IMG/VR virus record: IMGVR_UViG_2974602649_000001
Location: 39,219 to 103,218 of that record
Length of the DNA: 64,000 nt
Source of the DNA: a virus
Lineage: Duplodnaviria; Caudoviricetes
Direction: 5' to 3' (one strand)
Below, piece after piece: positions 15,574 to 63,958 of this stretch (positions are counted from its first letter, which is position 1; each line of letters opens with the position of its first letter). The notes below the pieces were generated by a model that had not been told where the DNA came from, searched no databases, and saw only the letters and a program-made list of their open reading frames with translations. The position numbers and the translations under genes are program-made.

Positions 15574-15885
15574 TTGTATGTGAGAGAAACATCGGTTCAC
15601 CAAGCAGGCATGTTCGGTCTTACACTTGAGGAACTTCCACAGGAAGACTACCTCATTTGGGATTGTAACTGGCCTGCTTTCGATGTATTCAGCAACATGG
15701 CCACACAGTGGCGTGTTGGATTTAACGGTGCCATTGGTCTTGATTACAACGCAATCCCCTTCACGGCAAAGTGTCTAGGATACAAAAACAAACAAGTTAA
15801 AGCAATGTTCCCTGACCTACAAGTGATGGAGAACGAAGCACTCATCACTATGGGGGAGAATCAGAAAAATGCCGACAATCGCTGA
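15574..15885 (+). CDS. Tail chaperone gpT part (DUF1799-like), reached by frameshift
   Basis: TQWRVG..GAIGLDY...LQVME; no SD of its own. Confidence 0.85.
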   Translation: MYVRETSVHQAGMFGLTLEELPQEDYLIWDCNWPAFDVFSNMATQWRVGFNGAIGLDYNAIPFTAKCLGYKNKQVKAMFPDLQVMENEALITMGENQKNADNR

Positions 15886-18800
15886 ACTGCAAGTAAAGGT
15901 AGACAGTACACAACTTAAAGATGGTAAGCAAGCATTCAATGAATTTGCGGATTCTGCAAAGAATGCTAGTGATGCTGTCAACAAGTTCAAAGGTGGCAGT
16001 GCTGGGGGCGGTATTGCCCCCGAGGCTGAGACAAGCAAAGTTAAGAACCTTTCTGCAAGCATTGATGACCAGACTCGTAAGCTACAGAACTTGGCAACCC
16101 AACGTAAGGCTCTAGAAGCCTCCGGGATGAAGACTACTGACATCAATGAATACACACGCCTTAACTCTATTATCGATGCTAATATCGCCCTTGTAGAGCG
16201 TCAAGGCACTGCTGTTAGTCGTTTGACAAGCTTGGAAGACAAAGACCTTCAGAAGAAAACTCAGAAGGCTGAGCAGGAAGCACGCATCCAAGAAAACATC
16301 GTAAAGGCAACTGAGCGAAAAGACCTTGTGATCACAAATGCTTCTGCTCGTGAGCAACGTAGTATCGAGCAAACAATCAATGGTCTTGATCGTCAAATCA
16401 AGGCACAGAATGATTATAACAAAGCTATCCAGAATCTGAGTAAGGCTCGTGCTCTCTCCGGTATGTCTGGTCCAGATGACAGTCGAACTACAATGTCCGG
16501 GGCTGAATTCGATTCCTACACAAAACTGGCTGCTGCTCAACGCGATGCGAAGCTTGCTGTTATGGACTACTCTGCGGAGATGGATCGTGTAAGAAGCAAG
16601 CTTGATACCTACACTGCAACACTGAGTCGTACTGACCGTGCTGAAGTTGAGCATAAACGATCAATCGAAGTTTTGAACGAAGCTCGTCGTCTTGGTATTG
16701 TAACGCAAGATGAGTACGATGCTAAGCTCGCTCGTTTTAATGAACGATTGGAATCTGTAAAGAAAGGAAACGAGGGTGCTGCAATCAGTACCGAGCGTTT
16801 GTCTAAACAAATGAACCAAGTTACTGGTCGATACGATGCAGTGACAAAAGCAATGAACAACCAGACAGTTGCTGAGCAAATCCTCACACAAGCAAATGAG
16901 CGTGGTCTGATTAGCACCGAAGACATGACTAAGGCTTTGCAAGGTTACTCTGCTGCGGTAGAAAAGGCAAAAGCAAAAGTAGCTGGTCCTGACATTGGCG
17001 AGGAGTTTGAGCGGGGACTGGATGATGTACTTGCGTATCGAACAGAGTTGCGTAACTTGGAGCTTCAAGAGAAACGTCTGCAAGACATGCGAAGCTCTGG
17101 TCGTGAACTGACTGATACACAACAACGTGATTTGGATCGGGCAACTACAGCACTTCAGAAGAACCGCGAAGCTCTTGAAAAACGAATTCGTACTGGTGAA
17201 AATGCTGGTATGACGTACAAACAAGAACAAGCAGCCCTTCGTGGTATGCCTGCTCAGATTACCGACATCGTGGTTTCCTTGCAAGGTGGTCAAGCACCAC
17301 TGACTGTACTCTTGCAACAAGGTGGTCAGATTAAGGATATGTTTGGTGGTGTTGGTGCTGCCATTCGTGGTATGGCTACAACTCTGGTTGGTATGATCAA
17401 CCCATTCACTGTTGCTGCTGCTGTCATGGGTACGCTGGCAATTGCTGCCTACCAAGGTGGTAATGAACTTAACGAGTTCAACAAAGCATTGATTCAAACT
17501 CGTGGTGTAAGTGGTGCAAGTGCAAACGACTTCACCGCAATGCGCACTGAGCTTGATGGGATTACTGGTACAGCAAGTCAAGCTGCTCAAGCACTGACTC
17601 TTATGGAGTCGTCTGGTAAGATTGCATCTGGTTCGTTTGTAGAGATTGGTGAAGCTGCAATCCTCATGCAGAAAGCAACAGGTCAAGCAATGAGTGAAAC
17701 CATTGAAGACTTTGCTTCTCTTGGTAAGGATCCAGTTGATGCTGCAATTCGTCTTGATGAGAAGTATAAGTTCCTGACGGGTTCTGTAATCGCTCAGGCT
17801 GCTGCTCTGGAAGAACAAGGTCGTAAGCAAGAGGCAGTAACGCTTTTGCAAGGTCGTATGGCAGAAGCTGCTACAGAAGCTGCTAAGACTATGATTGAAG
17901 AGGCTGGTTGGATTGAGCAGGCTTGGAATGGTGTAAAGGGTGCAGTAAGTGATACATGGGATGCTCTGAGGGGCATTGGTCGTGAAAGTACTGCTCAGTC
18001 AGAACTCGATGAGGTTCTTGCGAAACAAAAGGAAATCTATGACCTTGCTCGTGGTAACGAAGCTGCTCTTAAACGAAATAGTAAGTATCAAGAACTCGAA
18101 GCGGAACGTCGAGTATTGCAAGCACGAGTTGATACTGAAAAGTCTCTGGCTGATTACCAAGCAAAGCGTGAAATTGATCGTCAGAAAGATGTAGCTTACA
18201 CTAACCAGATGGCAAATGCTTCCCTCTCTAACTTGGCTACACTCGACAAGGTTCAAGCAAAAGAAGAGGCTTTGAAGAAAGTTCAAAGGGAACAGGCGGA
18301 ACAACGTGAACGAGTGAAGCGTCTAGGTCGTGACCTGAGTGCTGATGAAGTACGCAACATGGACCGTGCTCTGGCTGCTGCTAAACAAGAATTGAAAGAT
18401 GCTCAGGAAGCACAAGCCAAGAAAGGTGGTCGAGGTGCAATTGACACTCGTGAACTCACTGAAGTAAAATCCAACCTGAAAAACATCACTGCTGAATACG
18501 ATGGCTACTACAAGAACATCACTGCTCTCGGTAAAGCTAACGTTGTAAACGCTGAGGCGACATATCGTTCTCAGATGGCGGTGTTGCAAGCTCAGGAAAA
18601 AGCAGTATCTGATTCCTTTGGTAAAACCATTTCCGAACTTGAGCGTCTGCGTGGTGCGAAAGGAAACACCGCTGCCCAAAACATCTCTCTTGATAATCAG
18701 ATGACAAAAGCTGAGGATGAAAGGGTTAGGGCAGTAGAGGCAATCCAAAACAAACAAGAACAACTGACCATTGCCTTCCAAGGTGACATGGAAAAGCGTA

Positions 18801-19843
18801 GAGCTTCGATTGATTCTTACACCGATGCAATTAAAGAACAAGTGCGAGCATTGCGTGAGCAAGGTGATCGTGCTGTTGCTGGTGTTGGTATGGGTTCCCG
18901 CCAATCCGGTGTAGCAAACCAGCAGTACGACAATGACTTGTGGTACGCAAAAGAAAAACGCAGACTGTCTGAGGCGTTAACTGCCAACAAGATCGATGAC
19001 AATGAGTACAAGGAAAAGTACGCTACTCTGAAAGCAGCACACAGTGAGATGACTGATGTCATCATTGAAAATGACCGAAAGGTTCAGGAAGCAAACGCTG
19101 ACTGGACAAACGGGTTCACTGCTTCAATTCAGAACGCACAAGATGCTGGTATGAACTTTGCTGGTAATATGCAAACGGCATTGACTGGAGCATTTACATC
19201 AGCAGGTCAAGCATTTGCAACATTCGTCACTACCGGTAAGTTGAGCTTCCAAGACCTCACACTTAGCATCATCAGTAACATGGCTCAGATTGCCGCCCAA
19301 CAAGCTGCAATGGGTGCTCTGGGTGCATTGTTCGGTGCTATTGGTGGAGGCATCGGGGGTGGTGGTAATGGATTGGCAGTAGGTTCGGCTGGTTACACTA
19401 GCTCTAACTTGGGTGCATCTGCTGCTGGTTATTCTAGCAAGTACTTTGCAAAAGGTGGAGCGTTTACTGGTGGTACTCAGTACTTCGCAAACGGTGGAGC
19501 TTTCACAAACGGTATTGTATCGTCTGCAACATCTTTCGGGATGGCTAACGGAAACCGGGGAGTGATGGGTGAAGCTGGTCCAGAGGCAGTTGTCCCACTC
19601 ACAAGAACCAGCAATGGTGACTTGGGTGTTAGGATGGTAGGTAATGATGGTTCTGGTGGAAACACCAACATCGTAAACGTAGTTGTAAACGTATCGGATG
19701 ACGGCACCCAAACATCTACGGATGGTGGAGGTGACTGGAACTCGTTTGGTTCTCAACTGGGTCAATTCGTTGACCAGCGTGTTTACACTATCATCAACAA
19801 AGAAACACGAGGTGGTGGCTCCCTTCAGCCTCAAAAGCAGTAA
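15869..19843 (+). CDS. Tape measure protein (lambda family)
   Basis: 1324 aa, Ala/Gln-rich helical; PAQITDIVVSLQGGQAPLTVLLQQGGQIKDMFGG; FANGG...GEAGPEAV C-terminus. Confidence 0.96.
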   Translation: MPTIAELQVKVDSTQLKDGKQAFNEFADSAKNASDAVNKFKGGSAGGGIAPEAETSKVKNLSASIDDQTRKLQNLATQRKALEASGMKTTDINEYTRLNSIIDANIALVERQGTAVSRLTSLEDKDLQKKTQKAEQEARIQENIVKATERKDLVITNASAREQRSIEQTINGLDRQIKAQNDYNKAIQNLSKARALSGMSGPDDSRTTMSGAEFDSYTKLAAAQRDAKLAVMDYSAEMDRVRSKLDTYTATLSRTDRAEVEHKRSIEVLNEARRLGIVTQDEYDAKLARFNERLESVKKGNEGAAISTERLSKQMNQVTGRYDAVTKAMNNQTVAEQILTQANERGLISTEDMTKALQGYSAAVEKAKAKVAGPDIGEEFERGLDDVLAYRTELRNLELQEKRLQDMRSSGRELTDTQQRDLDRATTALQKNREALEKRIRTGENAGMTYKQEQAALRGMPAQITDIVVSLQGGQAPLTVLLQQGGQIKDMFGGVGAAIRGMATTLVGMINPFTVAAAVMGTLAIAAYQGGNELNEFNKALIQTRGVSGASANDFTAMRTELDGITGTASQAAQALTLMESSGKIASGSFVEIGEAAILMQKATGQAMSETIEDFASLGKDPVDAAIRLDEKYKFLTGSVIAQAAALEEQGRKQEAVTLLQGRMAEAATEAAKTMIEEAGWIEQAWNGVKGAVSDTWDALRGIGRESTAQSELDEVLAKQKEIYDLARGNEAALKRNSKYQELEAERRVLQARVDTEKSLADYQAKREIDRQKDVAYTNQMANASLSNLATLDKVQAKEEALKKVQREQAEQRERVKRLGRDLSADEVRNMDRALAAAKQELKDAQEAQAKKGGRGAIDTRELTEVKSNLKNITAEYDGYYKNITALGKANVVNAEATYRSQMAVLQAQEKAVSDSFGKTISELERLRGAKGNTAAQNISLDNQMTKAEDERVRAVEAIQNKQEQLTIAFQGDMEKRRASIDSYTDAIKEQVRALREQGDRAVAGVGMGSRQSGVANQQYDNDLWYAKEKRRLSEALTANKIDDNEYKEKYATLKAAHSEMTDVIIENDRKVQEANADWTNGFTASIQNAQDAGMNFAGNMQTALTGAFTSAGQAFATFVTTGKLSFQDLTLSIISNMAQIAAQQAAMGALGALFGAIGGGIGGGGNGLAVGSAGYTSSNLGASAAGYSSKYFAKGGAFTGGTQYFANGGAFTNGIVSSATSFGMANGNRGVMGEAGPEAVVPLTRTSNGDLGVRMVGNDGSGGNTNIVNVVVNVSDDGTQTSTDGGGDWNSFGSQLGQFVDQRVYTIINKETRGGGSLQPQKQ

Positions 19844-19844
19844 C

Positions 19845-19936
19845 TTGACAAATTGGAATTCTACATAGTAGAATTATTTCTATATGGGGAGGGTTTGTTT
19901 GGTGACAACTTCACTAAGCACCTCCCCTTTTTATTT
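19845..19936 (+). promoter_or_regulatory. Promoter with palindromic operator, followed by a terminator-like hairpin, between TMP and gpM
   Basis: TTGACA(19845)-N18-TAGAAT; AATTCTAC-ATA-GTAGAATT; GGGGAGG...CCTCCCC-TTTTTATTT. Confidence 0.65.
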
Positions 19937-19945
19937 GGAGGAGAT

Positions 19946-20293
19946 ATGGCAACAAAGACATTTACATGGCGTGTTGAACGAAACCTTACCCCAACCATTG
20001 ACTATCGGACAACCAAAACTCAGTTCGGTGATGGTTATGAGCAAGTTAGTTCTGACGGTATCAACACAAAGAACGAATCGTGGGCAGTGCGAGTTACAGC
20101 AAAGACTGAAAAAGAAGCTGGGGAAATCATGGACTTCTTTGACTCACTTGGTGGTGTGCATTCTTTCCTTTGGAAGCCACCTCTTGGTAAGACAGCTCTT
20201 TATCGTTGTGATAATCCTACACCAACCCCGCAAGGTGGTGGAGTGTATGTAATTACTGGCACTTTCGTCAAGTCCTATAACAATCCAGAATGA
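19946..20293 (+). CDS. Minor tail protein (lambda gpM-like)
   Basis: Start moved to MATKTFTW after SD GGAGG; QFGDGYEQ..DGIN, SFLWKPP. Confidence 0.92.
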   Translation: MATKTFTWRVERNLTPTIDYRTTKTQFGDGYEQVSSDGINTKNESWAVRVTAKTEKEAGEIMDFFDSLGGVHSFLWKPPLGKTALYRCDNPTPTPQGGGVYVITGTFVKSYNNPE

Positions 20294-20302
20294 GGTAATC
20301 TA

Positions 20303-21037
20303 ATGGCATTAACCGCATTGCTCGAAACAATTCACAGTCTTGAACCGGGCGCTCGTGTCGAACTCATTGAGGTTGACTGCCGTTCGTTTGGTGGGGACAT
20401 TCTTCGATTCCATAACTACAACGTAGATTACACTGAAGCTGAACTAAATGCAATGAAAAATGATCCAAGCATTCCACCTAAGGGTATTGTTTGGCAAGGG
20501 GAAACATACACCGCTTGGCCTTACGAGCTAACAGGTATTGAGTGGGATGGTACAGGTAAAAGCCCCCAACCTTCTCTGACAGTAGCTAACCAAGATGGTA
20601 GCATTACCTCTATGTGTTATCAACTGAATAACCTGTACGGAGCGAAAGTTATCAAGCATACCACCTTCAGACAATTCATGCCCGGGCAGCCTGAAGAAGA
20701 CAGCACGATGGAGTTTCGTCAAGTGTGGTTCATCACCCGTAAGGCTAGTGACAACATTGACGGTGTTAGCTTTGAGTTGTCAAGTCCTGCTGACTTCTCT
20801 GGTCAAAAGATCCCACGCAGGCAGATCCATGCTCTTTGTCATTGGGCGATGAACGGTGGATATCGTGGACCAGACTGCGGATATACAGGTACAAAGTATT
20901 TCACAGACAAGGATGTTGAGACTACAAACCCAGCGTTGGATGTTTGTCCCGGATTGTTCAAGAGTTGTGAACTCCGATTCGGAAAGAATGAACCTACACC
21001 ATTTGGTGGATTCATCGCTGCAACAGTAATCGGGTAA
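20303..21037 (+). CDS. Minor tail protein (lambda gpL-like)
   Basis: WQGETY, P.LTVAN, C-terminal Fe-S Cys cluster, PFGGF. Confidence 0.93.
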   Translation: MALTALLETIHSLEPGARVELIEVDCRSFGGDILRFHNYNVDYTEAELNAMKNDPSIPPKGIVWQGETYTAWPYELTGIEWDGTGKSPQPSLTVANQDGSITSMCYQLNNLYGAKVIKHTTFRQFMPGQPEEDSTMEFRQVWFITRKASDNIDGVSFELSSPADFSGQKIPRRQIHALCHWAMNGGYRGPDCGYTGTKYFTDKDVETTNPALDVCPGLFKSCELRFGKNEPTPFGGFIAATVIG

Positions 21038-21047
21038 GGAGAATAAC

Positions 21048-21857
21048 ATGATCCCAAAGAAACTCAAAGCGAAAACAATCAAAGCAATCAAAAAGCATGC
21101 TGAGCAAGGTTACCCTAATGAGGTTTGCGGGGTTGTGGTTATGACAAGTACTGGAGAGCAATACGTCGAGTGTGTCAACCTTAGTTCGGATCCAACACAA
21201 GAATTTCAAATGTGCCCAGAGTCTTATGTTAAAGCAGAAGAACTTGGTGAAGTGGTCGGCATTGTTCATAGTCATCCCGATGGTACTAGCTACCCTAGTG
21301 ACACTGACTTGGCTGTGATGAACAACAGCTATGAAATCCAGCTTATGGTTGACCCAACCTCTAAACCTATTCCATGGCACATCGTATCATGGCCAGAAGG
21401 CGATTACCAGCAGGTTTTACCCGAGGACATAGGGTTGATTGGGAAAGACTTCATTCACGGTTTAAACGACTGCTGGGCAGCTTGTGAGGCATATTACAGG
21501 AAGTACCACAACCTTGAGTTCCCCCGTTATGAGCGTGAGGATCTTTGGTGGGAAAATGCAAACAGCACATCTCTGTATGAGAAAAACTTCAAAGAAGCTG
21601 GCTTCTATGCGGTGGAGGATTATAAACCGGGTGACATGATCGTCATGCAGATCGGTAAAAGTCATTTCCCTAACCATGCCGGTATTTATCTAGGTGAGAC
21701 AAAAGAGTTTGAAGGGAGAGAGTTCTACGCATCCCCACTTATGTATCATCACATGTACAATCGAAAAAGTGAAGTCGTTGTGTATGGTGGTCAGTGGCTG
21801 CAACGTACTCGACTCATCTTGAGGCACAAAGGAGTAAAACATGGCAACGTGGATTGA
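21048..21857 (+). CDS. Tail assembly protein (gpK-like; JAB plus NlpC/P60)
   Basis: YPNEVCG, VHSHPD, DCW, NHAGIYLG. Confidence 0.93.
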   Translation: MIPKKLKAKTIKAIKKHAEQGYPNEVCGVVVMTSTGEQYVECVNLSSDPTQEFQMCPESYVKAEELGEVVGIVHSHPDGTSYPSDTDLAVMNNSYEIQLMVDPTSKPIPWHIVSWPEGDYQQVLPEDIGLIGKDFIHGLNDCWAACEAYYRKYHNLEFPRYEREDLWWENANSTSLYEKNFKEAGFYAVEDYKPGDMIVMQIGKSHFPNHAGIYLGETKEFEGREFYASPLMYHHMYNRKSEVVVYGGQWLQRTRLILRHKGVKHGNVD

Positions 21858-22434
21858 GGTAAAACCCGCTGGCTATCTAAAGAAGTTTGGTAATCATAAG
21901 TTCTATGTTGATAGTCCAGCAGAAGCAATTAAGGCAATGATGTTTCAAGTAAAGGGCTTCAAAGAAGCATTCTTTGCTGCTGAAAAGAAAGGACTTCGGT
22001 TTCAAGTACTGAGTGATAAACTCCAAGTCACTCACCCTGACATGTTGCTGATGGGGGAACCTAAAGTTGTAAAGATTGTTCCACGACAATACGGTAGGAA
22101 GAATGGTGGATGGGGAATGATCCTCGCTGCTGCTGCAATTGCCGCTGTTGTTCTCACAGGTGGTGTTGGTGGTTTCTTTGTAGCCGGTACTGTCTCTGGT
22201 AGCATTGCAACATCTGTAGCCATCTCTTTCGCACTTGGTGGTATTACACAACTAATGACACCAGCACCCGAGGGTCTGAAAACAAGAACAGATCCTGAAA
22301 ACAAAGCATCTTATGCATTCGGCGGTCCTGTAAACACAACAGCACAAGGTCAACCAGTCCCTGTTTTCTACGGATATCGGGAGGTCGGCGGTGCTGTTAT
22401 TTCTGCAAGTATGACCTCTGAAGATCAAAAGTAA
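21841..22434 (+). CDS. Tail assembly protein (gpI-like)
   Basis: SYAFGGPVNTTAQGQPVPVFYG..EVGGAVISA. Confidence 0.93.
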   Translation: MATWIEVKPAGYLKKFGNHKFYVDSPAEAIKAMMFQVKGFKEAFFAAEKKGLRFQVLSDKLQVTHPDMLLMGEPKVVKIVPRQYGRKNGGWGMILAAAAIAAVVLTGGVGGFFVAGTVSGSIATSVAISFALGGITQLMTPAPEGLKTRTDPENKASYAFGGPVNTTAQGQPVPVFYGYREVGGAVISASMTSEDQK

Positions 22435-22458
22435 ATTAACTTCCGATAGGAGACAAAA

Positions 22459-25400
22459 ATGATCCCTCACATCCATGGTATGAAAGGTGGTTCTCAGAAA
22501 CCACACACTCCTGTAGAAACACCTAACAACCTCCTGTCGGTTGCTTATGCCAAGATTCTTATGGCAGTTGCAGAAGGTGAGCTTGCTGGTAACCCAACTG
22601 CTCAGGACATTTTCCTCGACGGCACTCCTTTGGCTAACGCTGACGGTTCTTTTAACTTCGACGGTGTAAAGTGGGAGTGGCGTTCTGGTACTCAACATCA
22701 GACTTACATCCAAGGTATGCCAGAAGTTGCAACTGAGTACAACATTGGTACTGAGTTGACTAACGTAACTAGCTGGACTCGTACGGTAACCACCCCGGGT
22801 CTTGACGCTGTTCGTATCACGATGCAGTTCCCTGCTCTGTTGAAACAAGAAACAAACGGTGATACCAATGGTACTTCTGTTGAGTTTGCAATCGACATGT
22901 CTCCAATTGGTCAACCGCTTACTGAAGTTGCTCGTTATACCGTAACTGGTAAAACCAACCAAGCTTATGAAAAGACTTACCGGGTAGACCTCCCAGCTAG
23001 TACTCGTGGGTGGACTGTTCGGGTTCGTCGTGTAACACCAGACAGTACGTCGAGTATGCTCCAGAACAAGACTGTTGTAAAGTCCTATACTGAAGTGAAA
23101 GACCTGAAGCAAACCTACCCACACACCGCTCTGCTGTACGTTGAGTTCGACTCCCGTACCTTTGGTGGTGGCAACATCCCTAAGATTAGTGTTCGCACCA
23201 AAGGTCGTATCGTTCAAGTACCGTCCACGTATGATCCTGAGGCTCGCACTTACACAGGTGTCTGGTCTGGTGACTTCAAATGGGCATGGACAAACAACCC
23301 TATTTGGGTTTACTATGACCTCGTTACTCAAGATCGTTTCGCACTGGGTCACAAGATCACACCAGACATGGTGGACAAGTGGGCGCTGTATGAGTTGGCA
23401 CAATACTGTGACGTAATGGTTGATGATGGTACTGGTTTTGGTGGTAAAGTTCCACGCCACACCTGTAACGTTTATATCCAAGAACAGCAAGATGCTTATC
23501 AGGTACTTCGTGATATTGCAGGCATCTTCAACGGTATGACCTACTGGGATGGCAACAAGATGGTTGCTGTTGCTGACAAGAAAGAAGACCTGACGAATGC
23601 TCCAATCTTCTCTCGTGCTAACGTTGTCAATGGTCGTTTCGATTACCCAGCAGCAGACGATAAGTCGATTTACACAAGTGCTCTGGTTAGCTTTGATGAT
23701 CCAGACAACCACTATGAGTCCACTGTGGCTGCAACTTGGGAACGTTCTCAGATGCAACGTTGGGGTGGTGATCGTCAGACCAACCTTAGTGCAATCGGTT
23801 GCACCTCCCGTTCTGAGGCTCAGAGACGCGGTAAGTACGTCTTGCTGACCAACATGTACAACCGTATGGTTAAGTTCCGTACTGGCCTTCAAGGGCTTGA
23901 TCAAGCTGTTCTACCGGGTAGTATCATCCATGTAGTTGACCCACTGATGGGTGGTCGTCCGTTTACTGGTCGAGTCGCTGCTGTAGTCAACCAGCGTCAG
24001 ATCTACCTTGATCGTGATTCTGGTGCAAAAGTTGGTGATACTCTGTACGTTACCCTGCGTAATGGTAAAACAGAAGGTCGTCAGATCATGCGCATTGGTG
24101 GAAACTCTGTCACCGTTAGTACTGCATACACTCAAGATCCACCGATCAACTCTGTGTGGTATCTTGAATCGTCCGACCTCAAGTCTCAACTGTTCCGTGT
24201 GACTAAGGTAACAAACCCAGATCCAGCAGTATTTGAGATTGAGGGTGTAGAGTACAACGAATCCAAGTATGATGCAATCGACAACGGTGCTCGACTGGAA
24301 TCTAGACCAATCAACCAAGTACCTGACCGCATGCAGCAAGCACCTGCATCCGTTAACATCACTTCCCGCACATATGTCGAACAAACAATGGCGGTAACCA
24401 CTATGACCATTTCTTGGCCACAGACACCAAACGCTGTTAGTTATGAAGTACAGTGGCGTGTTGGCGATGGTGACTGGGTAAACGTTGGCGTAACTGGTGC
24501 TAACGAGATTGACATTAAAGGTATCTACGCTGGTGAGTATCTGGCTAGGGTTCGTGCTCGAAACAGCATCGGGATTGGTTCTGTATGGACAACATCCACG
24601 CTTACAAGCCTCGCTGGTAAAGCTGGTAAACCGCCAACCATTGCAAGCTTGACGACAACCCCAATGTTCTTCGGTATTCGTTTGGACTGGACATTCCCAC
24701 CGGGAGCTACAGACACACTGAAGACTGAAATCATGTACAGCCAGAATGCAAACTTTACATCTGCAATTAAACTTGGTGACTTCTCCTATCCTCTGGATTA
24801 CAATGAGATGCACGGTTTGAAAGCTGGTCAGAAGTTCTGGTTCTGGACTCGGTTGACAGACCGCACCGGTAACGTTGGTGACTGGTATCCAGCAACTAAC
24901 CTCCCGGGTATTGTTGGTACAGCAATGATCAACGACGATGGTCAATACAATGACTATTTGGCTGGTATGATCGGTGAAACAATGCTTGACAAAGCACTGT
25001 ATGAGCGTCTAGAATTAATTGATGGACCTAGCCCAGATAGTTTGAAAAACCAGATTACTTCTGTGGCAAATAGGGTAACCATCAACGAAGATCGTATTAC
25101 TGATGCAGAGAACAGCATTACCGAAGTTACTGGTGATTTGAACCAGTACAAAACACAAACAAACAATCGACTGACTGCTGCTGAGGCAAGTATCACTAAG
25201 GTGAACGGCGACCTCAATACATTCAAGGTGGAAACAAACGCCAAGATTACAGCAGCCAACCAAAAGATTGATGGTATTAACGCCTCGTTGACAACTAAGA
25301 TCAACGATACAAACACCAAAGTTGATAACATTAACACTGCTCTGGGCCAGCGAATTGATGCGACTAACACCGCATTGAATGCCGCTGTGACTGACTTGCA

Positions 25401-28227
25401 AGACCAGATTGATAACATCTCGGATGCTCTGCTCTATGACCCAACCAAGACTTACGTCAAGGGTGATGTTGTTCGTATGAACAATCGGTTGTATCAGGCA
25501 CTTGGGAACGTACCGCTGAACAGCCCTCCACCTAATGCAGCACTGTGGCAGGATATCGGTTCGTACGGTGAAACAATCAATAACCTCACAATTAAGGTTG
25601 ACAAGAACACCCAGGATATCGGTCTGATTGACGGTAAACTGACTAGTACTGTTGAGTCCCTTGACCTTATGCGTGCAGCGTACCGTCAAGATGATGGTGA
25701 AGGTTCTCTGCAAGATGCATTGCGTGGGTGGGAAAGTGAGGCTACAATTGCAACAGAGATGCTTACTCGTGCGAACGAAGACGAAGCTCTGGCACAGCGT
25801 ATCACCACAATGTCCGCTCGTGTTGATGAGAGTGAAGCCAAGATCAACTCTATGGAACAAACGATTGCAACCAATGAATCGGCAATGGCCCAACGAGTGT
25901 ACTCGCTTCAAGCTGAAGTCATGGATAACCGTACTGAAATTCTCTCCCTGAACAAGGTAGTGGCTGAAACTAACCAAGTTACAGCAGAACGTTTGGACTC
26001 CATGAGTGTTGCGATTAACGAAACAAAAGGTAGCATCAGCAGCCTGAGTGAAGTGGTGGCAACTAGCAACAATGTATTGGTTCAACAAGTAAACACACTG
26101 AGTGCTGAGCTTAAAAACTCAAACGCAATAATCTCTGATATCACAACAGTTATCATTGATAACAACCAAGCTCTCGTTGAGCGGGTGAATCAGATTGATA
26201 CTCGTGTAGGAACTGCTGAGACTAATATTACTACTCTCACCCAGACAGTTACAACAAACAACAACGCAACTAACCTTCGGATTGACAATCTGACTGCAAC
26301 AGTTGGTCAGAACACGGCTAAGATCGGAACATTGGAAACAACGGTTGCTAACGAAAAGACAGCGACTGCACAGCGTTTCGAGACGATGCAAACCGAAGTT
26401 GATGGTAACAAGTCGGCAATCACAAGTCTCACTGAGACAGTGACAACAAAAGATACGGCTACCAACCAGCGTATTGACAGCTTGACTACCAAGGTAAATG
26501 ACAACTCTGCTGCAATCACAACTCTGAGTGAAACTGTGACGGATCTTGAATCGGCAACAGCTTCCCAGATCACTCAACTTACAACCCGTGTTGGTAAAGC
26601 AGAGAGTGACATCACAACTCTTGCGCAGACCGTAACCACAAAGGACACAGCGACCAACCTTCGGATTGACACGCTTACTTCCAAGGTTGACGGTAACACT
26701 GCCAAGATTGGAACTCTTGAAACTACTGTGGCAACCGAGAAGACAGCAACCGCACAACGGTTCGCTACAATGCAAACTGAGGTTGATGGTAACAAATCAG
26801 CAATCTCGACATTGACTGAAACGGTAACCACAAAGGACACAGCAACTAACCAACGGATCGATACCTTGACAACTACGGTCAATGGTAACACTTCGGCAAT
26901 CACTAACCTGACTAAGACTGTTACAGACAACAACTCTGCGACGGTAAGTCAGATCAATGCGTTGACTACCCGGGTAGGTACTACTGAAACAAATATTACC
27001 ACATTGACTCAAACAGTCAACACCAAAGATGCAGCAACAAACCTGCGTATTGACAATCTGACCGCAACTGTTAACCAGAACAAGGCAGATATCAGCACTA
27101 TGCAAACAACAATCGTGAACAACGAGTCGGCAACGGCTCAGAAGTTCCAAACAATGCAAGCTGAAGTCAACGCAAACAAGGCGAATATTAGTACACTGGA
27201 AACAACAGTTGCTACTAACAATACAGCAATTAACACTCGTGTTGATAACCTCACCGCTACTGTTGATGGAAACACTTCTAAGATCACAACTCTGACGGAG
27301 ACTGTATCCACGCTGGAATCGTCTGTGGCAAGTATCCAAACTGACATTAGCGCAATCCACACAGTGGGCCGTGACGATGATGGTGAGGGTGACTTGAATG
27401 CTGCTCTGGGTGACTGGGGAACGCAGGCAAACATTGCAACTGAACAGAAGGTTCGTGCGGATGCTAACGAGGCTATGGCTTCGATCATCACTGACCTGAG
27501 TGCTAAGTTTACAACCGATATTGCATCCATGCAAGCGACCATCCACGAAGAGAGTGTTGCTCGGGCAACCGCTGACGAAGCCTTGGGTCAGCGGATTGAT
27601 ACTGTACAAGCTAACTTTGTAACTGAGCAAGGTCGAGTTAACGGTTTGATCCAAACTGAACAGACCACTCGTGCAAATGCTGACATTGCTCTCGGGCAGC
27701 GTATCGACACTGTACAGGCAACTGCCGGTAATAACTCTGCTGCAATTCAAACGCTGACATCTGCTCAGGCTAGCACTGACGGTAAGGTGAATGCTTCGTG
27801 GCAGGTTAAAATGGAGTTGAACGCACAAGGTCAGTACGTAGCTGCTGGTATTGGTCTGGGTATTGAGAACGGTCCAGCCGGTCTTCAGTCTCAGTTCCTT
27901 GTAAGGGCAGATCGGTTCGCAGTTGTAAACGGTGTCAATGGTACAACGTCTGCTCCATTTGTTGTTCAAGGTGGACAGGTGTTTATTGCCGATGCAATGA
28001 TCAACAAAGCAACAATCACAAACGCAATTATTGGTAGCACCCTCTCGTCCCAGTATTCAACCACTTGGGGTCCGGCATTGCCAACCTTGGTAATCAGCTT
28101 CGCGCAGGATGGTGCAATTGTAATGCGTAACCAAGTCCGACCAAACACTTACGCAACATATACGCCTGATGGTGTCAATATTGTTGTTGACGGTGTTACT
28201 CGTGTTCGGATGGGTACATGGCAATAA
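22459..28227 (+). CDS. Central tail fibre/host specificity protein (gpJ-like) with a long coiled-coil insertion
   Basis: AEGE, IFLDGTP, WAWTNNP, FN3-like region, CBM-like module, 32-aa repeats, GIGLG...ADRFAV C-terminus. Confidence 0.96.
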   Translation: MIPHIHGMKGGSQKPHTPVETPNNLLSVAYAKILMAVAEGELAGNPTAQDIFLDGTPLANADGSFNFDGVKWEWRSGTQHQTYIQGMPEVATEYNIGTELTNVTSWTRTVTTPGLDAVRITMQFPALLKQETNGDTNGTSVEFAIDMSPIGQPLTEVARYTVTGKTNQAYEKTYRVDLPASTRGWTVRVRRVTPDSTSSMLQNKTVVKSYTEVKDLKQTYPHTALLYVEFDSRTFGGGNIPKISVRTKGRIVQVPSTYDPEARTYTGVWSGDFKWAWTNNPIWVYYDLVTQDRFALGHKITPDMVDKWALYELAQYCDVMVDDGTGFGGKVPRHTCNVYIQEQQDAYQVLRDIAGIFNGMTYWDGNKMVAVADKKEDLTNAPIFSRANVVNGRFDYPAADDKSIYTSALVSFDDPDNHYESTVAATWERSQMQRWGGDRQTNLSAIGCTSRSEAQRRGKYVLLTNMYNRMVKFRTGLQGLDQAVLPGSIIHVVDPLMGGRPFTGRVAAVVNQRQIYLDRDSGAKVGDTLYVTLRNGKTEGRQIMRIGGNSVTVSTAYTQDPPINSVWYLESSDLKSQLFRVTKVTNPDPAVFEIEGVEYNESKYDAIDNGARLESRPINQVPDRMQQAPASVNITSRTYVEQTMAVTTMTISWPQTPNAVSYEVQWRVGDGDWVNVGVTGANEIDIKGIYAGEYLARVRARNSIGIGSVWTTSTLTSLAGKAGKPPTIASLTTTPMFFGIRLDWTFPPGATDTLKTEIMYSQNANFTSAIKLGDFSYPLDYNEMHGLKAGQKFWFWTRLTDRTGNVGDWYPATNLPGIVGTAMINDDGQYNDYLAGMIGETMLDKALYERLELIDGPSPDSLKNQITSVANRVTINEDRITDAENSITEVTGDLNQYKTQTNNRLTAAEASITKVNGDLNTFKVETNAKITAANQKIDGINASLTTKINDTNTKVDNINTALGQRIDATNTALNAAVTDLQDQIDNISDALLYDPTKTYVKGDVVRMNNRLYQALGNVPLNSPPPNAALWQDIGSYGETINNLTIKVDKNTQDIGLIDGKLTSTVESLDLMRAAYRQDDGEGSLQDALRGWESEATIATEMLTRANEDEALAQRITTMSARVDESEAKINSMEQTIATNESAMAQRVYSLQAEVMDNRTEILSLNKVVAETNQVTAERLDSMSVAINETKGSISSLSEVVATSNNVLVQQVNTLSAELKNSNAIISDITTVIIDNNQALVERVNQIDTRVGTAETNITTLTQTVTTNNNATNLRIDNLTATVGQNTAKIGTLETTVANEKTATAQRFETMQTEVDGNKSAITSLTETVTTKDTATNQRIDSLTTKVNDNSAAITTLSETVTDLESATASQITQLTTRVGKAESDITTLAQTVTTKDTATNLRIDTLTSKVDGNTAKIGTLETTVATEKTATAQRFATMQTEVDGNKSAISTLTETVTTKDTATNQRIDTLTTTVNGNTSAITNLTKTVTDNNSATVSQINALTTRVGTTETNITTLTQTVNTKDAATNLRIDNLTATVNQNKADISTMQTTIVNNESATAQKFQTMQAEVNANKANISTLETTVATNNTAINTRVDNLTATVDGNTSKITTLTETVSTLESSVASIQTDISAIHTVGRDDDGEGDLNAALGDWGTQANIATEQKVRADANEAMASIITDLSAKFTTDIASMQATIHEESVARATADEALGQRIDTVQANFVTEQGRVNGLIQTEQTTRANADIALGQRIDTVQATAGNNSAAIQTLTSAQASTDGKVNASWQVKMELNAQGQYVAAGIGLGIENGPAGLQSQFLVRADRFAVVNGVNGTTSAPFVVQGGQVFIADAMINKATITNAIIGSTLSSQYSTTWGPALPTLVISFAQDGAIVMRNQVRPNTYATYTPDGVNIVVDGVTRVRMGTWQ
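25843..27360 (+). repeat. About 16 x 96-bp (32-aa) coding repeats with a 384-bp higher-order period inside gpJ
   Basis: Blocks start at 25843, 26227, 26611, 26995 (384 bp apart); e.g. IGTLETTVANEKTATAQRFETMQTEVDGNKSA recurs almost exactly. Confidence 0.9.
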
Positions 28228-61200: not shown

Positions 61201-61692
61201 ATGGCTACTATTATCGAACAAATGAATATCCAAATTGACGCTACTCAGGCTCAAGCAATGCTTGATGAAATGATTGAGAAGCTTCAGATGAATGAGCAAC
61301 AGATTCTTGAGGCTGGTATTTTCAACGGTCTTGAACTACTGCAAGGAATCATCTACCAAGGTAATGTGAAAGCTGGCTGGTGGACTAACCTACAAACTGG
61401 TGAACTGAAACCAAAGGGTGATGTAACTGAGATTCTGGCAAAGCTTGCTCTGGTTCATTCGGAAGTAAGTGAGGGTCTGGAAGGTGTTCGTAAAGGTCTG
61501 ATGGATGACAAGCTTCCGCACCGACCAATGCTCGAAGTTGAACTGGCAGACGCAGTGATCCGCATCATGGACCTGTGTGGTCATGAGGGTCTGGATCTGG
61601 CGGGTGCTATTCGTGAGAAACTGGCATATAACGCACAACGTGCTGACCATAAGATTGAGAACCGTATGAAAGATGGTGGGAAAAAGGCGTAA
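61201..61692 (+). CDS. MazG-like nucleotide pyrophosphohydrolase
   Basis: LALVHSEVSEGLEG.RK...EVELADAVIRIMDL...K..YN..R. Confidence 0.88.
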   Translation: MATIIEQMNIQIDATQAQAMLDEMIEKLQMNEQQILEAGIFNGLELLQGIIYQGNVKAGWWTNLQTGELKPKGDVTEILAKLALVHSEVSEGLEGVRKGLMDDKLPHRPMLEVELADAVIRIMDLCGHEGLDLAGAIREKLAYNAQRADHKIENRMKDGGKKA

Positions 61693-61742
61693 TGCCTTTC
61701 ACCACTATTGATTTCAATAAGACATGGAGGAGTGATTTAACT

Positions 61743-62894
61743 ATGAGTAAGACTGACCCTAAGTTCTATCTTGGTGATGTTGTAATGTTCAACAGTGTCT
61801 GGGGCTATCCTGACGGTGCCGCTGAGGATGTTGAATATACCATTGTGGAGAAAGTAAAGACTGGTGGTTGGCAACTAGAAACCGGCATTAACGGTCACAC
61901 AAAGCAAATTAGTCTTGAGATTGTTCGTCGGAAGCCGTATGATTTCATTCTGGTGAAACGTGGTGAGATTACCCACGATGTGTACGACCAGATTGAGGAA
62001 CTGAAAGCTCTGGTTGACATGTTGCGTACTGCCAACACAGCTAATGCTGCTACACTTTGTGGTGTCCAGTCTAGTGTCAGTACAGCACAGGTCGATTTGA
62101 GGTCGCTTCATGAAGGTCAAGCGGAAATGCAAGAACAAATTGACAACCTGTGTGAGCGTGTGGATGCTTCAGAAACTCGGGATGCTGTAACAAACATCAA
62201 CAACACGGTCAACAAGTTTGAACCATTTGAAGTTTATGTTGATGGGGTGCTCCGTATTAGTATGGGAATGTGGGATGACAACCCTAAGCAAATTCATTTG
62301 ACTAGTGATAAAGAGTACGCCGAAGGTGGTATTGCTTCTTATGATGCATCGAAGGCACCGTTGTTTGGTGAGTGTAGCAGCGACTTTGTAATGCCAATGA
62401 CTCGTGGTCTTAATGGGCGACTCACCCCAATCCCGGGTGCTTATGTCACCGATCCAATCAACATCACAGTCAACAGTGAACCTGCGGAAGAGTACAGTGA
62501 CTTTGCACAGCAGCTTGCGGATCATATTGAGAAAACTGGAAGGCGTGTGATTTCTGAAGGCTTTACCCAGATGAAACAAGGTGAAGTAGCTTCGACCGAG
62601 AGTAGCGAACCTATTCGCAGTACTGGTGGTTCGTCCAGTTACTATGACCTCCCGTTGAGTGACAAACTTATGAACAAGTTGTTTGATCGTTGGGAGGAAG
62701 GCAAAGCCCACATTCGAACTGAGGAGCTTATTGAAGAGGCATTCGACAATGACTTTGACTTTGGTACAGCATTCAAATCTCTGGTCCGGGTACGTGGTAC
62801 GACCAAAGGTGGTGGTAAAGCCGGTAACGATGTTGGCTACGAATGCAATAAGATCGACTGGTCGGTAAACAAAATCCGAGAAAAACACTCGTAA
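61743..62894 (+). CDS. Mosaic protein: SH3-like N-terminus, coiled coil, gpJ-like and TMP-like C-terminal peptides, TGGSSSYY domain
   Basis: Internal similarity to gpJ and TMP of this window; STGGSSSYY...FDFGTAFKSL C-terminal domain. Confidence 0.7.
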   Translation: MSKTDPKFYLGDVVMFNSVWGYPDGAAEDVEYTIVEKVKTGGWQLETGINGHTKQISLEIVRRKPYDFILVKRGEITHDVYDQIEELKALVDMLRTANTANAATLCGVQSSVSTAQVDLRSLHEGQAEMQEQIDNLCERVDASETRDAVTNINNTVNKFEPFEVYVDGVLRISMGMWDDNPKQIHLTSDKEYAEGGIASYDASKAPLFGECSSDFVMPMTRGLNGRLTPIPGAYVTDPINITVNSEPAEEYSDFAQQLADHIEKTGRRVISEGFTQMKQGEVASTESSEPIRSTGGSSSYYDLPLSDKLMNKLFDRWEEGKAHIRTEELIEEAFDNDFDFGTAFKSLVRVRGTTKGGGKAGNDVGYECNKIDWSVNKIREKHS

Positions 62895-62898
62895 GTAG

Positions 62899-62934
62899 TT
62901 GATTTACAAAGGAACGGGAGCTATAATGGCTCCC
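62899..62934 (+). promoter_or_regulatory. Promoter upstream of thyX, -10 box inside an inverted repeat
   Basis: TTGATT-N17-TATAAT; GGGAGC-TATAATG-GCTCCC. Confidence 0.6.
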
Positions 62935-62959
62935 ACACCTACTAATGAAAGGAGAGAAC

Positions 62960-63958
62960 ATGATTCAAAAACCTACAGCCAAGATGATTGCTGACAGTAT
63001 TTCCAGCATTACTGGTATTCGAATGATGACAATTCAAGTTGACATGCCACGCATTGTTCTGGCAGAACTCAACACTCACAGTGCCTTGTGTAAGAACACA
63101 TCGTCTTCCCGGGCAATCCCTGTACCAACTTTGATCAAACAGGTTCGTGACAATCCAGCAATGCCTGTTCGATTCGGTGCTGCCAACAAGGGTATGCAGG
63201 ATGCTGGTCCGCACAATGCCTTAATTGAATATCTTGGCGGTGAACTCACTGCTGAAGAGTTCTGGATTGAATCGGCACACCATGCTGCGTACTTTGCTGA
63301 GACTCTCCATGAGGCAGGTTATGCCAAGCAAGTATGTAATCGCGTTACTGAGCCTTACCAATGGTCCCGTGTTGTTCTGTCTGGTACTGACTGGGAGAAC
63401 TTCAAGTGGTTGCGTAATCACTACATGGCAGATCCAACTATCGAAGCTGTTGCGATTGCCATTGAGGAAGCCATGGCTCAAAGTACCCCAGTAGTTCTGA
63501 ATCCGGGTGAGTGGCACGTACCGTATTACAACGATGGTATTTGGAAACCTATTCCAAGCAAGCAAGTTACATATGATGGATTGATTGATGTAGATAAGTT
63601 CGGTCACAGTCTGGAGCACGCCCTGATGATTAGTTCGTCTTGCTGTGCTCAGGCATCGTATCGCCAGCTTGATGACACCGTTGAGAAAGCAACTCGTGTT
63701 AGTGCAAACTTGAACCTTCGTGGTGAACAACCAGATGAACCAGTTCACGCAAGCCCACTGGAACACCAAGCTACACCGGTTCAGCAAAATCACATTTACC
63801 AAGGAGCAACTGAAATCCTTGAAGTGAATGGTGGTCGCCCTAGTACTTGGGAAAAGGGTATTACACATATGCGTCGTGACGGTACTCTGTGCTCTGGGCA
63901 ACTGAGAGGCTGGGTGCAATACCGCCAGCTAGTTCCGAACAATGTCAAAAATGGTTGA
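62960..63958 (+). CDS. thyX: Flavin-dependent thymidylate synthase (phage Thy1/ThyX)
   Basis: AKMIADS, PRIVLAELNTH...SSSRAIP, KQVCNRVTEPY, NF.WLR, HASPLEH. Confidence 0.88.
   Translation: MIQKPTAKMIADSISSITGIRMMTIQVDMPRIVLAELNTHSALCKNTSSSRAIPVPTLIKQVRDNPAMPVRFGAANKGMQDAGPHNALIEYLGGELTAEEFWIESAHHAAYFAETLHEAGYAKQVCNRVTEPYQWSRVVLSGTDWENFKWLRNHYMADPTIEAVAIAIEEAMAQSTPVVLNPGEWHVPYYNDGIWKPIPSKQVTYDGLIDVDKFGHSLEHALMISSSCCAQASYRQLDDTVEKATRVSANLNLRGEQPDEPVHASPLEHQATPVQQNHIYQGATEILEVNGGRPSTWEKGITHMRRDGTLCSGQLRGWVQYRQLVPNNVKNG

Follow-up and report, generated by a model that had tools for sequence, protein, structure and literature searches.

A tape-measure C-terminal-type module inside a thyX-linked protein of Pseudomonas phage phiPMW with a predicted DUF3310-like domain

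What is a stretch resembling the C-terminus of a tail tape-measure protein (TMP) doing inside a small soluble protein encoded among genes of nucleotide metabolism? The question is raised by a protein of 383 amino acids (aa) of the Pseudomonas putida phage phiPMW, whose gene lies between a mazG-like pyrophosphatase gene and a thyX-like gene in the window analysed here (64,000 nucleotides, bases 39219-103218 of the 103,218-bp genome; PMC5587285). An earlier note had described this protein as a chimera of two tail-tip sequences, the end of gpJ and the end of the TMP, and had taken it for a mimic of the tail tip. The peptides, coordinates, identity counts and neighbouring genes that it quoted are all correct when checked in translation: VDGVLRISMGMW is identical to the gpJ end VDGVTRVRMGTW at eight of 12 positions and GECSSDFVMPMTRGLNGRL to the TMP sequence GEAGPEAVVPLTRTSNGDL at nine of 19, and downstream the peptides INITVN and FAQQL correspond, in that order, to VNVVVN and FGSQL of the TMP. 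As argued below, the likeness to the TMP is real, and the reading that we favour, at a probability of about 0.5, is that of a modular nucleotide-pool protein of the thymidylate branch in which the tail-derived insert is probably an assembly or docking element.

Pairwise comparisons within the phage are weak, BLAST giving E 0.043 for the stretch resembling the TMP and E 0.008 for the hairpin against gpJ residues 1896-1921 (each a single comparison), and the question was therefore moved to the level of the protein family. Four homologues have the whole layout (P0002, P0003, P0004 and P0007, with 37-56% alignment identity to the phiPMW protein), and their motifs are nearer the TMP consensus than that of phiPMW, as in YATGGIVGSGKIGLIGEAGTETVLPMVR of P0003. 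When five family segments of 58 aa were compared by hhalign with 120 lambda-type TMP C-termini, the probability of homology was 86.6% (P 4.5e-6), with a score of 36.4, where 200 column-shuffled controls reached 25.9 at most; with the segment lengthened to the C-terminal domain it was 93% (E 2.7e-7, 84 colinear columns). Three family middles gave 97.8% (E 1e-12, 82/97 columns) against 17 short-form TMP C-termini that had been aligned independently. A 58-position family profile run over 1.84 billion representative proteins returned 83 matches at E<=1e-3, 80 of them outside the family and the best of these at E 2.8e-13. Most are long proteins (700-3,700 aa) in which '[YF]AxGG[IV]xxxPxxxL[IV]GExGPExx[IV]P[LM]' is repeated two to six times; among seven long matches submitted to Pfam, PhageMin_Tail or TMP_3 occurs in three, and the other four are without a Pfam domain. 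Finally, a profile built to the exclusion of the phiPMW protein found two sites only in all six frames of the phage genome, at E 1e-11 in the gene itself and at E 3.7e-4 in the C-terminus of the TMP. The homologues also match TMP families in PHROGs, weakly.

The agreement of these five tests indicates that a complete TMP C-terminal-type module makes up the middle of the protein, its motif, strand and helix being colinear with those of TMPs, and in this part the chimera holds; by profile comparison, the likeness is beyond chance. Of 26 TMP-length open reading frames (ORFs) from IMG/VR (loci L087-L110 and 19487-19843 of the window), 24 have the motif 65-129 residues before their C-terminus, in the pattern FAxGG..GLIGEAGPEA.IPL, followed by an INVTV strand and then by a helix ending in R..G. 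The phiPMW module shares with TMP C-terminal modules such as the lambda gpH C-fragment and PyoF5 of F-pyocin a '[YF]AxGG ... GExGxExx[IV]P[LM]xR' motif, an INxTV strand and an amphipathic helix, at equal spacing. It differs from them in being internal, followed by a folded domain of 93 aa where the TMP motif stands near a free C-terminus, in a terminal helix that is without the KE.R.GG ending of lambda-type TMPs, and in its setting, a soluble protein encoded in a nucleotide-metabolism block. The protein itself does not belong to the tape-measure class: it carries neither TMP_2 nor Tape_meas_lam_C nor any other TMP domain of Pfam and lies outside the tail cluster, where the true TMP is encoded at 15869-19843. 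In the PDB, the sole sequence match is to the motif of the F-pyocin TMP (residues 522-542), in a chain built only at 579-611. The literature searched describes neither a TMP C-terminal module inside a non-tail protein nor a role for the '[YF]AxGG...GEAGPEAxIPL' motif, although the latter is strongly conserved in the TMP C-termini that we examined. A single copy in a small, soluble, non-structural protein, and in fusions with two enzymes, would offer a tractable handle on what the module binds or assembles.

The module is no recent copy of the resident TMP, as there is no similarity at the DNA level and the resident TMP scores below foreign ones. A recent copy from phiPMW's own tail genes was rejected, blastn finding random 11-13-mers only. 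Against the family profile the phiPMW TMP scores 16 bits and P0111, the cognate TMP of P0003, 13 bits, compared with 20-34 bits per copy in other TMPs, and the motif of the phiPMW TMP carries an insertion of 13 residues. A metagenomic protein of 95 aa (P0258, either a short protein or a fragment of a TMP) has in YATGGSVRGAHRGFVGECSSESILPLRRGADGRL the same unusual GECSS variant as the phiPMW protein, and matches TMP PHROGs at E 7.7e-7.

Is the module then simply debris? It could be a captured fragment in a neutral mosaic, serving merely as a spacer between barrel and C-terminal domain or having no role at all, and slowly decaying. This would fit the phiPMW motif being the most degenerate of the family (GECSSDF for a consensus GEAGPEA), the presence of no more than relics of the motif in two close relatives (P0005 at locus L020, with 'YIAEGG..LGE', and P0006), its absence from all 53 IMG/VR loci that encode the C-terminal domain, and the low confidence of monomer models of the stretch. 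However, six proteins with two different C-terminal domains, only 23-54% identical over the N-terminal module (32-54% among the five DUF3310-type members), all retain G-E-x3-[DE]-x2-[LM]-P, with G209, E210 and P218 invariant, and the GG that precedes it, and the profile still reaches TMPs at E 3e-13 in the 1.84 billion proteins, where a neutral relic of such age should have faded. We consider such a neutral mosaic unlikely. Within the module it is the terminal helix that is least conserved in the family.

One of those six proteins shows what the N-terminal module can accompany. P0275 (297 aa, metagenomic, L086:521-1414) was retrieved solely through its TMP motif (RYATGGLIGQHNTGLIGEQCCETIIPM), and it occupies the same slot between mazG and a thyX-like gene, the product of the latter being 55% identical to that of phiPMW (E 3e-135). 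Barrel and TMP motif are common to P0275 and the family (hhalign 96.6%, E 6e-10), and the C-terminal part is a dATP/dGTP pyrophosphohydrolase domain of the MazZ type (dGTP_diPhyd_N, PF18909, phrog_801). P0275 further differs from the phiPMW protein in having two apparent barrels, as read by eye, and no coiled coil. Homology between the C-terminal domain of phiPMW and this pyrophosphohydrolase domain was considered and rejected (hhalign E 0.54). With a shared N-terminal module, another enzyme domain and the same slot, P0275 shows that the N-terminal module and its TMP motif form a unit that accompanies different nucleotide-pool enzymes, and this fits poorly with a role purely as a tail decoy.

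The earlier note had set the C-terminal end of the phiPMW protein aside as an unrelated TGGSSSYY domain. It is instead the conserved core of the family, linked to thyX and ribonucleotide reductase, and structure prediction makes it a divergent DUF3310-like domain. AlphaFold2 (AF2) models it with a predicted local distance difference test (pLDDT) of 90-98, as a confident four-helix fold at residues 295-383. In comparisons that set predicted structures against predicted structures, Foldseek retrieved BFVD entries named 'nucleotide kinase', 'DUF3310' and '3'-phosphatase, 5'-polynucleotide kinase' at probabilities of 0.96-1.0 (template-modelling (TM) score by target <=0.66), and 26 of the 30 named matches in the ESM Atlas carry PF11753 (top score 0.94, structural TM 0.76/0.78). 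Among the 22 members of the domain family, 19 match phrog_7063 and seven match phrog_11324 (best E 6e-4); the latter is also matched by T7 gp1.7 (E 4.6e-6), a protein whose own DUF3310 domain, at residues 122-184, scores 81.5 bits against PF11753. What the phiPMW domain has in common with gp1.7 and DUF3310 is a small helical domain in which S-x-Y, F-G-N-x-x-K-x-x-x-R-A and a K...Y helix come in one order, and an early or DNA-metabolism gene position. It differs in the invariant GGSSSYYD and GGGKxGN motifs of its own family, in its fusion to a long N-terminal assembly module, in a kinase activity that is putative, and in falling below every Pfam threshold. Passages in PMC11897194 (citing Tran et al.) and PMC9339283 report that gp1.7 phosphorylates thymidine monophosphate and deoxyguanosine monophosphate.

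Many phages, those of Aeromonas, Acinetobacter and Vibrio among them, encode the domain on its own as a protein of about 100 aa, and its N-terminal extensions range from 0 to 240 aa across the 53 IMG/VR loci; the segments upstream of it are thus variable cassettes, a point that the earlier note had proposed to check. Gene order around it is observed directly. A thyX or thyX-like gene lies directly 3' of the gene in the window, L001, L002, L004 and L086, and is separated from it by one small ORF in L003; in these six loci mazG or dUTPase is found upstream in four, and ribonucleotide reductase within the fetched stretch in three. More widely, 23 of the 53 loci have thyX or a thyX-like gene inside the fetched flanks (within about 6 kb), usually accompanied by ribonucleotide reductase, dUTPase or mazG; in 22 of the 23 it stands downstream and is encoded on the same strand, often immediately adjoining the gene for the C-terminal domain. 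No canonical thymidylate kinase (Thymidylate_kin) was found in the phiPMW genome. Through this linkage a widespread DUF3310-like phage domain that is annotated as hypothetical gains a functional context.

On the favoured reading, the protein would be cytoplasmic, with the DUF3310-like domain as its functional core, and by analogy this domain would bind or phosphorylate a (modified) pyrimidine or purine deoxynucleoside monophosphate coming from the adjacent ThyX-like enzyme. The N-terminal part, made of the barrel, the coiled coil, the hairpin and the TMP-type module, would be an accessory assembly module, gathering several C-terminal domains or docking onto the ThyX-like enzyme or another enzyme of the deoxynucleoside triphosphate pathway. 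We infer oligomerisation or docking because TMP C-termini trimerise in tail tips: in lambda and F7 pyocin the last 30-odd residues of the TMP do so, and its terminal helix contacts gpI or the homologue of gpI (PMC12617516, PMC12874032). The module would be an old acquisition from the 3'-terminal part of a tape-measure gene other than phiPMW's present one, maintained by selection in a small clade and left to decay in close relatives.

Several observations weigh against this reading. As regards the C-terminal domain, the hhalign alignment with gp1.7 is in register over 74 columns, pairing SSSYY with PSHY, FGNxFKxxxRA with FGNILKYRLRA and the final K..Y helix with its counterpart, but has a probability of 3%. 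The Pfam DUF3310 model finds no match even at E 10 in the domain, in the 22 members or in the six-frame genome. The PDB yields none to the domain profile, and by fold nothing below E 1 with Foldseek and generic helical hairpins only with VIA-align (Z<=6.4). In gp1.7 itself, moreover, the catalytic role of the DUF3310 part is putative. As regards the N-terminal module, the two relatives that retain relics of the motif are without the module, which is thus dispensable for the C-terminal domain; AF2 confidence is low for residues 160-290 of the monomer, in a module whose oligomerisation is putative; and the motif region is unresolved in the tail structures of lambda and F7 pyocin (PMC12617516, PMC12874032). 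Modelled alone, with TMP rows in the alignment, the TMP-like module has a mean pLDDT of 59.7, which is insufficient for a fold search.

The protein might instead go where TMPs go. The module would then recruit it during assembly to the tail tip or the lumen of the tube, so that a nucleotide-pool enzyme, of the DUF3310 type or, in relatives, of the MazZ type, would be packed in the virion and would enter the cell together with the DNA. All elements of the TMP C-terminal module are indeed there in order (motif, strand and terminal helix), the one module is found on two different enzymes, and in lambda just three of the six gpH C-fragments are seen bound to gpI (PMC12617516). Yet the gene stands among DNA-metabolism genes, away from those of the tail, the putative gpI-contacting helix is without KE.R.GG and is variable in the family, the module is internal and followed by a folded domain, and the phiPMW paper (PMC5587285) reports no virion proteomics; we regard such targeting as very unlikely. 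Only slightly less doubtful is a role of the TMP C-terminal module as a portable tail-tip address or assembly signal, grafted onto DUF3310-type or MazZ-type enzymes that would be loaded into tails and delivered with the genome or would engage the tail-tip initiators of rivals. Were the module to address proteins to tails, siphophages would have a new way of taking cargo into their virions.

The mimicry proposed in the earlier note, in which the protein would be a decoy for a host defence that senses TMP or gpJ, or a poison of tail assembly in co-infecting siphophages, seems highly improbable, and a decoy or poison function has no positive support. It can draw on the genuine TMP likeness, on a motif of the gpJ-end type in P0004 and a tail-protein-like snippet in P0007, and on the family motif being closer to foreign short-form TMPs than to the phage's own TMP, as would be expected of a poison that spares its owner. 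The higher scores of foreign TMPs are also expected, however, because lambda-type TMPs have the 13-aa insertion in the motif. Mimicry leaves unexplained the fusions to nucleotide-pool domains and the strict synteny with thyX, the module is lost in close relatives, and the terminal helix, the part that contacts gpI in TMPs, is the very part that the family conserves least.

The gpJ half of the chimera stands less firmly than the TMP half. Although eight of 12 residues are identical, the likeness in the phiPMW protein is marginal at the sequence level, and it is in the family, through P0004, that a hairpin of this kind becomes plausible. The gpJ homologues share a terminal hairpin, VYDAxG[VI]xRVxLGxL, and a gpJ-end profile gives the phiPMW protein 1.9 bits (independent E-value (iE) 0.012) and no score at all when phiPMW gpJ is left out. 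P0004 (DGSTRVYDSDGVIRVRMGYV) obtains 17.2 bits (iE 2e-7), or 11.4 bits without phiPMW gpJ. Profile comparison of the separate segments thus recovers TMPs and, for the phiPMW protein, gpJ only marginally: a short hairpin 'VYD.xG[VI]xR[VI]xxGx[LW]' is common to phiPMW gpJ and its homologues and recognisable in P0004, whereas the 383-aa protein matches its own gpJ alone. Phage_Tail_Tip of Pfam is absent from it, and AF2 places strands at 162-166 and 169-174 with low confidence. In P0004 the hairpin follows the TMP motif and in the phiPMW protein it precedes it, and MAFFT sets the phiPMW hairpin opposite the last strands of the apparent second barrel of P0275 (read by eye); an origin of the phiPMW hairpin from a tail fibre is therefore no more than a possibility. 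In P0007 (L004:5930-6619), residues 108-134, after the TMP motif, match phrog_2589 'tail protein' at E 1.4e-4, and phiPMW gpJ falls in the same PHROG.

The domain map of the protein, with its five parts (beta-barrel, coiled coil, gpJ-end-like hairpin, TMP C-terminal-type module of about 100 aa and conserved C-terminal domain), and the homologies behind it are direct results of the comparisons above; coordinates are given in Table 1.

Table 1. Position in the window of the gene, its parts, its neighbours and the two tail sequences used for reference
Feature	Position	Strand	Extent or element	Basis or remark
Whole gene	61743..62894	+	383 aa	phiPMW 'uncharacterized protein', UniProt A0A1S5R1S0, phrog_4521
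Shine-Dalgarno GGAGGAG	61726..61732	+	10 nt 5' of ATG 61743	sequence read
Small beta-barrel	61743..61967	+	residues 1-75	SH3-like by weak fold matches; common to P0002-P0006 and P0275
Coiled coil	61968..62222	+	residues 76-160	AF2 helices 77-117, 119-140, 144-157
Beta-hairpin with gpJ-end-like peptide	62223..62294	+	core VDGVLRISMGMW, 62238-62273	BLAST, profile, AF2
TMP C-terminal-type module	62295..62612	+	residues 185-290	profile tests
Elements of the module		+	YAEGG; GECSSDFVMPMTR motif 62367-62423; INITVN strand 62457-62474; helix ~62487-62579	
Conserved C-terminal domain	62613..62891	+	residues 291-383; STGGSSSYYD...FGTAFKSLVR...GGGKAGN..YECNK	predicted divergent DUF3310-like four-helix domain
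mazG-like pyrophosphatase, upstream	61201..61692	+		phrog_5658, E 1.3e-76; mazG also adjoins in L020 and L086
thyX-like, downstream, divergent	62945..63958	+	337 aa	phrog_85, E 6.4e-87
Reference: gpJ C-terminal peptide	28186..28221	+	VDGVTRVRMGTW	
Reference: C-terminal module of phiPMW TMP	19487..19843	+	motif 19568-19624	Pfam TMP_2, Tape_meas_lam_C

The ORF spans 61692-62894, and the assigned ATG is almost certainly the true start, given the GGAGGAG site, the start of the database copy and the N-termini of the homologues. The protein is 100% identical to a BFVD entry of Pseudomonas phage phiPMW, as found by searching with the AF2 model, and the gene is thus already present, as hypothetical, in the published genome; the phiPMW literature makes no mention of it. 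New for the family are the DUF3310-like assignment and the linkage to thyX. The long ORF matches phrog_4521, a family of unknown function, at E 1.3e-148, residues 17-400 falling on profile positions 6-415 of 423, and the N-terminal, middle and C-terminal pieces of the 383-aa protein each match it separately. Pfam finds no domain in the whole protein or in any piece, coiled-coil noise apart.

The N-terminal barrel is modelled with a pLDDT of 93-96, and its Foldseek matches (YorP, PsaE and Tudor) are weak, all at E>1. The coiled coil that follows is found in the phiPMW protein, P0002 and P0003 and is short or absent in the other relatives, where the alignment has gaps; its own matches are to coiled coils of EzrA and Snapin, again weak. 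The TMP-type module stands downstream of this predicted coiled coil in the AF2 model.

Further upstream of the mazG-like gene are genes for an HNH endonuclease and a DNA polymerase exonuclease subunit. The thyX-like product downstream is atypical, with no match to Thy1 in Pfam or to any PDB sequence; it aligns with a canonical Thy1 of 223 aa only around the signature, in which NTHS...SSSR replaces RHS...SQR. Orthologues of this thyX-like gene lie directly 3' of the studied gene in L020 and L086, and in L001 and L002 this place is taken by unannotated genes of 336-343 aa that are probably orthologues as well. Within the 50 nt that separate the studied gene from the thyX-like gene lies a promoter-like TTGATT-17-TATAAT (62899-62927, + strand), which is overlapped by a terminator-like hairpin (62936-62914, - strand).

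In its published description the phage is a myovirus related to Felixounavirinae, yet it carries a lambda-type tail-tip set at 15869-28227, in which gpI is encoded at 21841-22434. This includes the TMP of 1324 aa (TMP_2, Tape_meas_lam_C) and a gpJ of 1922 aa (FNIII-A_GpJ, Phage_Tail_Tip), the latter with a very long coiled-coil repeat region at residues ~1100-1700 (25750-27550), 5' of its Phage_Tail_Tip domain.

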